Source: Escherichia phage PSD2001
Length of the DNA stretch: 64,000 bases
Strand: one strand, 5' to 3'
Sequence record: OK254198.1
Shown here piece by piece: positions 23,162 through 23,947 of this stretch (its first letter is position 1; each line of letters begins with the position of its first letter). The translations under genes were made by a program, and so were the position numbers. The notes under the pieces are model-generated. The model ran no database searches and was not told where the DNA came from. It saw only the letters and a program-made list of their open reading frames with translations.

Positions 23162-23187
23162 AGGGTTCCACATCTCCACTACTTGAG

Positions 23188-23195
23188 TATAAATA
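23188..23195 (+). promoter_or_regulatory. late promoter TATAAATA for the HNH gene
   Basis: Plus-strand TATAAATA ~26 nt upstream of the ATG at 23222. Confidence 0.5.
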
Positions 23196-23221
23196 TAGTA
23201 TATCACCAAAGAGGACATACA

Positions 23222-23947
23222 ATGAATTATGCTTTAATATATGAGAATTTAATGAACCGAGCCAAATCTAGAAAATTGACTGGATACAAAGAATCTCACC
23301 ATGTTGTTCCTCAATGTTTAGGCGGACCAGATACAAAAGAAAACCGAGTTGATTTAACGCCGGAAGAGCATTATCTAGCACATCAACTATTGGTAAAAAT
23401 TAATCCAGAACATAAAGGATTGAAATATGCTGCCTATATGATGACTATATCACCAGATGGTCGCCGGCAGAATAATAAATTATTCGGTTGGTTAAAGAGA
23501 GATTACTTAAACAATAGAATTCAATCATCCGGAATGAAAGGGAAAAAGCATAAACCCAAATCAATTCAATTGATGAAAGATAAACGTGCTCTCCAAAAAA
23601 TCACCGAAACAACTAAAGCCAAAATATCTAAAACAAAAACTGGCGTAAAATTTACAAAAGAAGCACTAAAATCATTTAATGAAAAACGTTCCGCAAACCA
23701 AGCATGGATTGATTCCAATTTTAGGCCATGTAAAGAAAGCACCAAATCTAAAATTGGTGATGCCAATAGGGGTCGTGTTTTTGATAAAAAGACCTGCCCT
23801 CATTGTGGTAAAACTGGAGCAGGTCCTAATATGAAACGGTATCATTTTGATAATTGCAAATCAAAAGTCGCCAAATGCAACCTGCCAGCATTCAACACCA
23901 ATATGACGCCACATCTCGACAACGTTTTGCCTATCGTCAACGGCTAA
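23222..23947 (+). CDS. free-standing HNH homing endonuclease (Mob-like)
   Basis: HNH core [29 protein letters not shown]; basic repeat-rich middle; C-terminal CPHCGK...C..C; start trimmed to [10 protein letters not shown] with GAGGA RBS; only plus-strand gene in a long minus-strand block. Confidence 0.8.

Follow-up and report, generated by a model that had tools for sequence, protein, structure and literature searches.

The stretch of DNA analysed here, a window of 64,000 nucleotides (nt) from Escherichia phage PSD2001 (record OK254198.1), was found to carry a plus-strand open reading frame (ORF) of 241 codons at positions 23222..23947 (stop codon 23945-23947), lying between the minus-strand genes cd.4 and pseT. 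As judged from sequence comparison, this gene is very probably a free-standing Mob-type HNH homing endonuclease (HE) cassette which is specialised for the 3' end of pseT. Some Gaprivervirus and Moonvirus phages carry the cassette and others lack it. The enzyme is of an ordinary kind, and its counterparts in phages SP18, VR7 and VR25 are already labelled in GenBank as "putative mobile nuclease" or homing endonuclease. What is new here are the exact boundaries of the mobile unit, the link between the clade members examined and the pseT 3' end, a candidate target and immunity patch within pseT, and a conserved target-like element at the promoter of the HE gene. No account of this HE, or of any pseT-associated endonuclease, was found in the literature.

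Alleles at the cd.4/pseT junction

Over positions 22400-24800 the closest nucleotide relatives of the window are phages P479 (97.5% identity) and SP18 (97.0%), placing it among the Gaprivervirus phages of the JS98/SP18-like T-even type. The gene had been predicted to be a mobile insertion between the cd cluster and pseT, and comparison of this junction in related phages supported the idea, with insert-free alleles being found and the cassette being better conserved than its flanks. In the empty allele (UPEC01, VR20, VR26 and others) the ATG of cd.4 overlaps the TAA of pseT as TAATG, a spacing of -1 nt. In the small-ORF (sORF) allele (RZ and locus L007; PHROG 2430) the pseT stop is separated from the cd.4 ATG by 189-192 nt, and in the HNH allele, with its gene on the plus strand (the window, P479, SP18, 212, TH57, TH40, VR7 and VR25), by 699-700 nt. 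A fourth type is found in P896 (locus L003, 2261-2980, minus strand), where a SegD-like GIY-YIG gene is the counterpart of window positions 23162-23860 and the spacing is 763 nt. The Gaprivervirus records listed comprised approximately seven distinct HNH-positive phages, 12 with the empty site and seven with the sORF, together with the single Seg allele. The same polymorphism exists in Moonvirus, in which KM16 possesses the HE, Moon is empty (TAATG) and CF1 and Merlin have the sORF. Since empty-site alleles exist, the HE gene is not a conserved core gene, and the related genomes did not present it as a syntenic ORF lacking such alleles.

The sORF encodes 61-66 residues and is found in both Gaprivervirus and Moonvirus (loci L002 2255-2455, L007, L027 1039-1224 and L028 1036-1227). 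PHROG 2430 has a function-less annotation, and the sORF is probably the equivalent of T4 cd.5.

Limits and lateral transfer of the mobile unit

The identity of the window to VR7 changes abruptly along the locus. It is 80.3% in cd.4, 96.7% in the 60 nt before the ORF, 97.8% in the part of the HE ORF within the insert and 95.4% in the 87 nt where this ORF overlaps pseT, falling to 78.0% in the next 100 nt of pseT and 75.9% in the rest of that gene. Phages TH40, TH57 and VR25 gave a similar profile, with the cassette and the 87-nt pseT end at 95-98% compared with 76-82% for the flanks. When the window was compared with the four HNH-positive genomes of the other backbone, the 87-nt pseT end had 95-97% identity and the following 100 nt 78-79%. 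At the protein level, the same phages share 96.7-97.5% identity in the HE, 78-82% in PseT and 83-94% in Cd.4. So large an excess of conservation in the cassette over its flanks indicates lateral transfer between diverged genomes. The right edge of the shared tract falls between 23942 and 23951, which brackets the HE stop codon, and the 87-nt pseT end displays the co-conversion of flanking DNA with the HE gene. The mobile unit is placed by these alignments at approximately 23162-23947, and would consist of the insert and the last ~28 codons of pseT (in order, a pseT relic, a late promoter, a ribosome-binding site (RBS), the ORF and the pseT end).

Association with the pseT 3' end

The nearest relatives of the HE outside Gaprivervirus were found at similar positions. 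Identity to the window HE is 69% for Salmonella phage KM16 (Moonvirus), 71% and 80% for two metagenomic lineages and 59-63% for four more distant lineages. In every clade member whose locus was examined (9/9, at 59-97% identity), a plus-strand HE converges on the 3' end of the PNKP/pseT gene, while the neighbour on the other side varies, being a cd.4-like gene, a NUDIX gene or an unknown gene. Because pseT is constant and the other neighbour is not, pseT rather than cd.4 is indicated as the target gene.

Protein family and architecture

The three features which the original prediction had read from the protein, an HNH core, a basic repeat region and a cysteine cluster, are each present. The HNH core occupies residues 21-54 (23282-23383) with N41, H50 and H54, NUMOD3-like helical repeats lie at residues ~105-185 within the ORF, and a zinc finger is formed by C192, C195, H208 and C212 (23795-23857) as a C-terminal cluster, all on the plus strand. 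In an alignment of 119 homologues, H26, H27, N41, H50, H54 and the four zinc-finger residues were invariant or at least 90% conserved. Residues 1-226 match PHROG 655 "homing endonuclease" (E = 7e-63), 875 homologues were found at E <= 1e-10, and a tblastn search identified relatives in 1065 phage records, including genes annotated as mobD, MobE and "Mob-like HNH". A suggested alignment to the T4 Mob proteins and to enzymes of the I-HmuI type succeeded for the former and found no support in fold searches for the latter. A 232-residue T4 Mob paralogue aligns with the HE end to end (BLASTP, 32% identity, E 9e-32), T4 MobE has 54% identity over 62 residues of the N-terminus and the phage PST gene annotated as mobD has 38.5% identity. 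The 232-residue paralogue lies next to the gene 46/47 region of T4 and is probably MobB, in line with PMC2988022 Table 1.

The AlphaFold model of the HE is extended and confident (predicted local distance difference test score (pLDDT) 84.9, predicted template modelling score 0.50), consisting of an HNH unit, a string of helices and a small zinc ribbon. A sequence search of the PDB aligned residues 21-54 with the HNH of IscB and McrA, these matches being weak (E >= 0.06). The gene is intergenic, with the start of cd.4 on one side and the stop of pseT on the other, and has a promoter and an RBS of its own. A scan of 22000-25500 with Rfam detected no family at E <= 1 and no intron. For these reasons the HE is regarded as free-standing rather than intron-encoded. 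By homology, the gene is therefore classed as a free-standing Mob-type (T4 MobE/MobD-like) HNH homing endonuclease gene.

No paralogue of the HE was found elsewhere in the 64-kb window. In the whole record of P479 (MW269952.1), tblastn found five places similar to the HE, with the other paralogues all lying outside the 64-kb window, and this genome is predicted to carry several Mob-like paralogues.

Start codon and expression signals

The gene had been predicted at 23183-23947. The gene itself stands, but this plus-strand ORF, as it appears in the ORF list, is a TTG-extended form of it. The true start is the ATG at 23222, as the N-terminus is MNY or MDY in all aligned homologues, a coding sequence of 726 nt is annotated in the SP18, VR7 and VR25 records and an RBS (AGAGGA, 23210-23215, plus strand) lies 7 nt upstream; orthologous lineages have AAGGAG at the same place. 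A T4-type late promoter, TATAAATA, is located at 23188-23195 on the plus strand, and the KM16, L024 and L022 lineages have kept it in front of their HE genes. The late promoter and RBS previously assigned to the gene were both located. The promoter octamer occurs 10 times in the window compared with 4.7 expected, and all five of its plus-strand copies lie 25-45 nt upstream of plus-strand ORF starts; they therefore behave as real late promoters. A sigma-70 scan gave chance-level results, and a terminator scan found no plus-strand terminator after the HE ORF. The other four plus-strand copies, at 3277, 39658, 44817 and 49612, precede ORF starts at 3309, 39697, 44860 and 49638, consistent with late promoters of structural genes.

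It had also been noted that this is the only plus-strand gene in a ~30 kb minus-strand block, which holds for credible genes across the block 9527-39600. A plus-strand ORF of 102 residues at 25519-25827 overlaps the minus-strand genes 25080-25598 and 25730-26020, and is probably spurious.

A pseT-like element at the late promoter

A 21-nt copy of the pseT site of HE-minus phages, CCACATCTCCACTACTTGAGT, was found at 23168..23188 (plus strand), abutting TATAAATA. On the reverse complement it encodes T Q V V E M W, corresponding to pseT codons -22 to -16 (counted back from the stop), and it represents a same-strand copy of HE-minus pseT, 49-69 nt in from the stop. The element agrees with the pseT allele of RZ at 19/21 positions and with that of UPEC01 at 17/19, and none of 2000 shuffles was as good. 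The functional pseT copy of the window (23909-23929, CCACATCTCGACAACGTTTTG) differs from the HE-minus site at 7/21 positions. When the HE-minus 21-mer was sought in the 64-kb window with up to three mismatches, only the promoter-adjacent copy matched, with no match expected by chance. With a match taken as >=16/21 in each locus, HE-minus loci have the pseT site only, HNH-positive loci the promoter-adjacent copy only and P896 neither. Between the relic and pseT, homology extends as far as codon -23|-22.

An origin of the element as a classical target-site duplication was rejected, as the copies are 741 nt apart, the right copy is 48 nt inside pseT and the insert is not directly flanked by them. 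Since the copies do not flank the insert, a displaced resident 3' end fits better. It is likely that an ancestral cassette, which brought a pseT end with it, entered at about codon -23|-22 and so displaced the end already there. Most of this displaced end was later deleted, as was most of the cd.5-like ORF. The adjoining AGGGTT (23162..23167, no strand assigned) is similar to the AGGTTTT/AAGTTTT which P896 and the sORF alleles of RZ and L007 have at the corresponding place, and is probably, by this similarity, a leftover of the last codons of a cd.5-like sORF.

The relic has also affected how cd.4 is read. The true start of cd.4 (22964..23161, minus strand) is the ATG at 23161-23159 (MNNIEKIF...), where the empty alleles start, and the match to PHROG 2360 begins at residue 20 of the extended ORF. 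The mechanically extended form (22964-23218, minus strand, beginning MSSLVIYYIYTQVVEMWNPMNN) contains TQVVEMW in frame, and its extension up to 23218 is pseT-derived relic read in frame. In the GenBank record of SP18, cd.4 begins at the ATG of the relic (MWNPMNN...), which is probably a mis-annotation.

Two main accounts can be given of why these 21 nt persist. By analogy with I-TevI, they may have been retained by selection as an operator for autoregulation of the HE, a tentative suggestion to which we give roughly a third of the probability. In its complete form, the HE would have entered by replacement of the pseT 3' end with a cleavage-resistant version of the last ~22-27 codons, the displaced 21-nt piece being selected as an operator which is bound and not cut; this is conceivable, if somewhat short of an even chance. 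Alternatively, the element may be only a scar of insertion, or may serve cd.4 as an RBS (GGAG/TGGAA) after coupling to pseT was lost, with neither HE binding nor autoregulation. This is a serious possibility, although we would not expect it to be the answer. It would explain why the element reads as pseT-sense TQVVEMW in frame with cd.4, such that the SP18 annotation could start cd.4 there, and it agrees with a spacing to TATAAATA which varies from 17 to 22 nt and with the weak counterpart seen downstream of the promoter in L031 and L035 and absent in L033. However, among the window, KM16, L024 and L022 the element is 82-95% identical, compared with 33-63% at 4-fold degenerate sites of the adjacent ORF (binomial P 1e-3 to 5e-6), while the leader between promoter and RBS is not conserved, and the role of an RBS would constrain just 4-5 nt of the element. 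A homology arm is a further alternative.

A candidate target and immunity patch in pseT

The last 34 codons of pseT were tabulated for nine HNH-positive, one Seg and 13 HE-minus alleles from the two genera. Differences between the alleles are concentrated at codon -4 and in a polymorphic patch at codons -24 to -21 (23924..23935, minus strand), the latter being the candidate site of cleavage and immunity. In HE-minus alleles the patch is GAC CGN (AGT/ACT/ACC/AGC/GCA) CAA (D R S/T/A Q). HNH-positive alleles have one of three versions, GAT AGG CAA AAY (D R Q N), GAT AGA GAC ACC (D R D T) and GAT CGC AAT TCC (D R N S). In all HNH-positive lineages except L022, a synonymous family switch, CGN to AGR, has affected the Arg codon. 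These codons separate HE-positive from HE-minus alleles in both genera, and the VVEMW block next to the patch is conserved in all pseT alleles. On this pattern of codons, the patch is likely to be the target of the HE and the site of immunity to it.

It is rather unlikely that the target lies elsewhere, at the junction of the pseT stop and the cd.4 start or at codon -4, with the patch being old divergence carried along with the cassette. Codon -4 (23873..23875, minus strand) does differ consistently, with Phe in all HNH-positive alleles as against His or Ala in the HE-minus ones; the cassette is inserted right at the pseT stop, and the HE-positive tracts are all of common descent. Against this, the homology of relic and pseT ends exactly within the patch, the patch displays three replacements (QN, DT and NS) as well as the synonymous Arg switch, and the co-transferred tract ends only 4-7 codons past it.

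In P896, pseT keeps the HNH-positive type of patch, D R Q N, and differs from that of the window only in the last ~7 codons. Retention of this patch suggests, as far as pseT sequence can tell, that an HNH-positive ancestor had its HNH gene replaced by the Seg element. A megablast search with a 130-nt HE-positive-type pseT end, seeking genomes which are immune and empty, returned only P896, which carries Seg, the short query limiting its sensitivity.

Overlap with pseT and the C-terminal tail

The last ~29 codons of the gene had been described as antisense to the end of pseT over about 87 nt. The convergent overlap (23861-23947, HE plus, pseT minus) is exactly 87 nt, and in it HE residues 214-241 and the HE stop codon lie antisense to the end of pseT from codon -28 onwards. 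As a trait of this insertion the overlap is real but not unique, an overlap of one length or another being present in all clade members examined. It is shortest in L032 and L033 (4 nt) and longest in the window (87 nt), with L035 (20 nt), L031 (27 nt) and KM16, L024 and L022 (36 nt each) in between. Members of the family usually end 3-11 residues after the ...HFDNCK motif, the normal extent past the last zinc-finger Cys being given by 3-6 residues, and the tail of the HE has a pLDDT of 52-58 and no predicted secondary structure. Among six HNH-positive alleles, the overlap contains five variable sites, all of which change an HE residue (A217T, N220D, A223T, M228T and V235I), while four are silent in pseT. 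Because its length varies, its pLDDT is low and its substitutions follow pseT, a functional tail was rejected; the 28 residues are most likely accidental read-through, constrained by pseT and not by the HE. There is thus little to recommend a functional overlap, in which the tail would aid DNA binding or a late antisense transcript or the overlap itself would regulate pseT: some overlap with the pseT 3' end does exist in every lineage examined, and late transcripts should run antisense into pseT as no terminator follows the ORF, but the inconstant length, the earlier stops of relatives, the poorly predicted tail and the five substitutions all argue otherwise.

The stop codon of pseT (23861-23863) is TGA in all HNH-positive Gaprivervirus alleles, TAA in all HE-minus Gaprivervirus alleles and TAG in P896. 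As HE-minus Moonvirus pseT also stops with TGA, the choice of stop codon is a marker of lineage rather than something which the overlap requires.

Selection on the HE and weighing of the evidence

The ratio of nonsynonymous to synonymous substitution rates (dN/dS) of the HE is 0.07-0.16 (codons 1-213, within Gaprivervirus and against the KM16 lineage), and the protein appears from this to be under purifying selection. That the gene is domesticated or decaying and no longer homing, its presence and absence reflecting ordinary recombination and deletions, is accordingly improbable. One lineage, L022/L023, is indeed frameshifted near the N-terminus, and activity has yet to be demonstrated for several T4 mob genes (PMC2988022 Table 1); however, the low dN/dS, the intact catalytic residues, the sharp drop of identity at the cassette edges and the precise empty sites with a restored TAATG junction, rarely expected from random deletion, speak against decay. 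The frameshift in L022 (metagenome SRR14654594, ~2850-2965), also present in L023, lies in a GAAAAGCGAAAAGCGAAAAGCC repeat, and an ortholog of 196 residues is called from a GTG; this is either a decaying copy or an assembly error. L022 also has an extra ~60 nt with an inverted repeat upstream of the relic.

Several observations weigh against a homing cassette specialised for pseT. At the level of the protein, the matches to Pfam HNH (13.6 vs 21.4 bits) and NUMOD3 (17.8 vs 20.4 bits) are below cut-off, a search of the HE against NCBIfam returned nothing and fold searches gave weak local HNH matches only; a precomputed PF07460 hit does exist in most close homologues. At the level of the population, the type-B backbones VR7, VR25, TH40 and TH57 may represent one or two transfer events only, as these four genomes share one pseT backbone, and all HE-positive tracts share one origin, so that the cases in which HE and patch occur together are not independent observations. 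The L022 lineage retains the patch Arg as CGC. In the distant lineages, the promoter element is marginal in L031 and L032 (~3-4% of shuffles as good) and absent in L033 and L035.

Proposed mechanism and significance

A pseT-specific homing cycle can be proposed as follows. Late in a mixed infection, the HE would be made from its TATAAATA promoter, bind the conserved VVEMW-coding block of an HE-minus pseT and nick or cut near codons -24 to -21. This division of binding and cutting is proposed because the layout resembles that of MobE on nrdB. Recombinational repair from the HE-positive genome would then copy the variant pseT end and the HE gene into the recipient. The HE-positive genome would be immune, its own site being changed at 7/21 positions, including the Arg switch. 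The least certain step is that the remnant of the resident pseT end may serve as a non-cleavable binding site for autoregulation. Such a cycle could lead to marker exclusion in mixed infections, as the original prediction had considered possible.

By itself, the HE gene adds one more to the selfish nuclease genes of T-even-type phages. The locus, on the other hand, is an unusually clean natural experiment, with four allele types (empty, cd.5-like sORF, HNH and GIY-YIG) at one junction. The sharp edges of the mobile unit, the predicted 12-nt patch for sensitivity and immunity and the promoter element make the target, immunity and possible autoregulation of a Mob-type enzyme directly testable. 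If the proposed layout is true, the VVEMW codons are predicted as the binding half-site and the DDR[S/T]Q codons as the cleavage half-site. If the operator reading is true, autorepression in the style of I-TevI extends from intron-encoded to free-standing Mob-type enzymes. The probable target gene is itself of interest, as pseT (Pnkp) is a counter-defence gene of T4 against host anticodon nucleases. In the window it encodes a polynucleotide 5'-kinase/3'-phosphatase (23861..24763, minus strand; Pfam HAD_PNKP, E 8.9e-56, and AAA_33; PHROG 505, E 2e-120). It may be speculated that an element favouring the inheritance of particular pseT ends could shape the spread of such alleles.

Comparison with known systems

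The closest parallel is T4 MobE, encoded between nrdA and nrdB, which is of the same family, is similar to the HE in its N-terminal HNH, and is likewise free-standing and variably present among relatives. MobE nicks T2 nrdB beside a polymorphic patch adjoining a conserved block (Wilson and Edgell; PMC2790892), and the HE shares this layout of a target in the adjacent conserved gene with a polymorphic patch beside a conserved block, its target being a predicted one. They differ in that the HE lies at cd.4/pseT, a site absent from the T4 endonuclease sites in PMC2988022 Table 1. In addition, T4 mobE is promoterless and co-oriented with its neighbours (PMC2790892), whereas the HE gene is oriented against its neighbours, with a late promoter of its own, and runs antisense into one of them. 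The 232-residue T4 Mob paralogue shares with the HE the HNH, the basic helical NUMOD3-like repeats and the CPHC...H..C zinc finger, but stops 6 residues after the last Cys compared with 29 in the HE and has another insertion site. I-HmuI, an intron-encoded nicking enzyme (PDB 1U3E), has in common an HNH motif and an extended modular DNA-binding region with NUMOD-type motifs, those of the HE being putative; unlike it, the HE is not intron-encoded, and no PDB sequence match to the HE was better than E 0.06.

Occupation of one junction by different endonuclease families has a precedent in T4 relatives, where SegH and Hef replace mobC and mobE (Sandegren et al. 2005, as cited in PMC2988022). The SegD-like GIY-YIG gene of P896 at cd.4/pseT is comparable, but the HNH-positive-type patch kept by this phage suggests replacement of an HNH gene rather than invasion of an empty site.

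The operator of I-TevI is a mimic of the homing site which overlaps a late promoter, and through which the enzyme represses itself without cutting; operator sites have been described or proposed only for three intron-encoded T4 enzymes (PMC2988022). The element in the window is similar in being a homing-site-like sequence at the late promoter of the HE with the other half-site missing, the homing site of the HE being a predicted one. However, the enzymes with such operators are intron-encoded, I-TevI and I-TevII being of the GIY-YIG type, whereas the HE is a free-standing HNH enzyme whose element looks like a leftover of its target gene.

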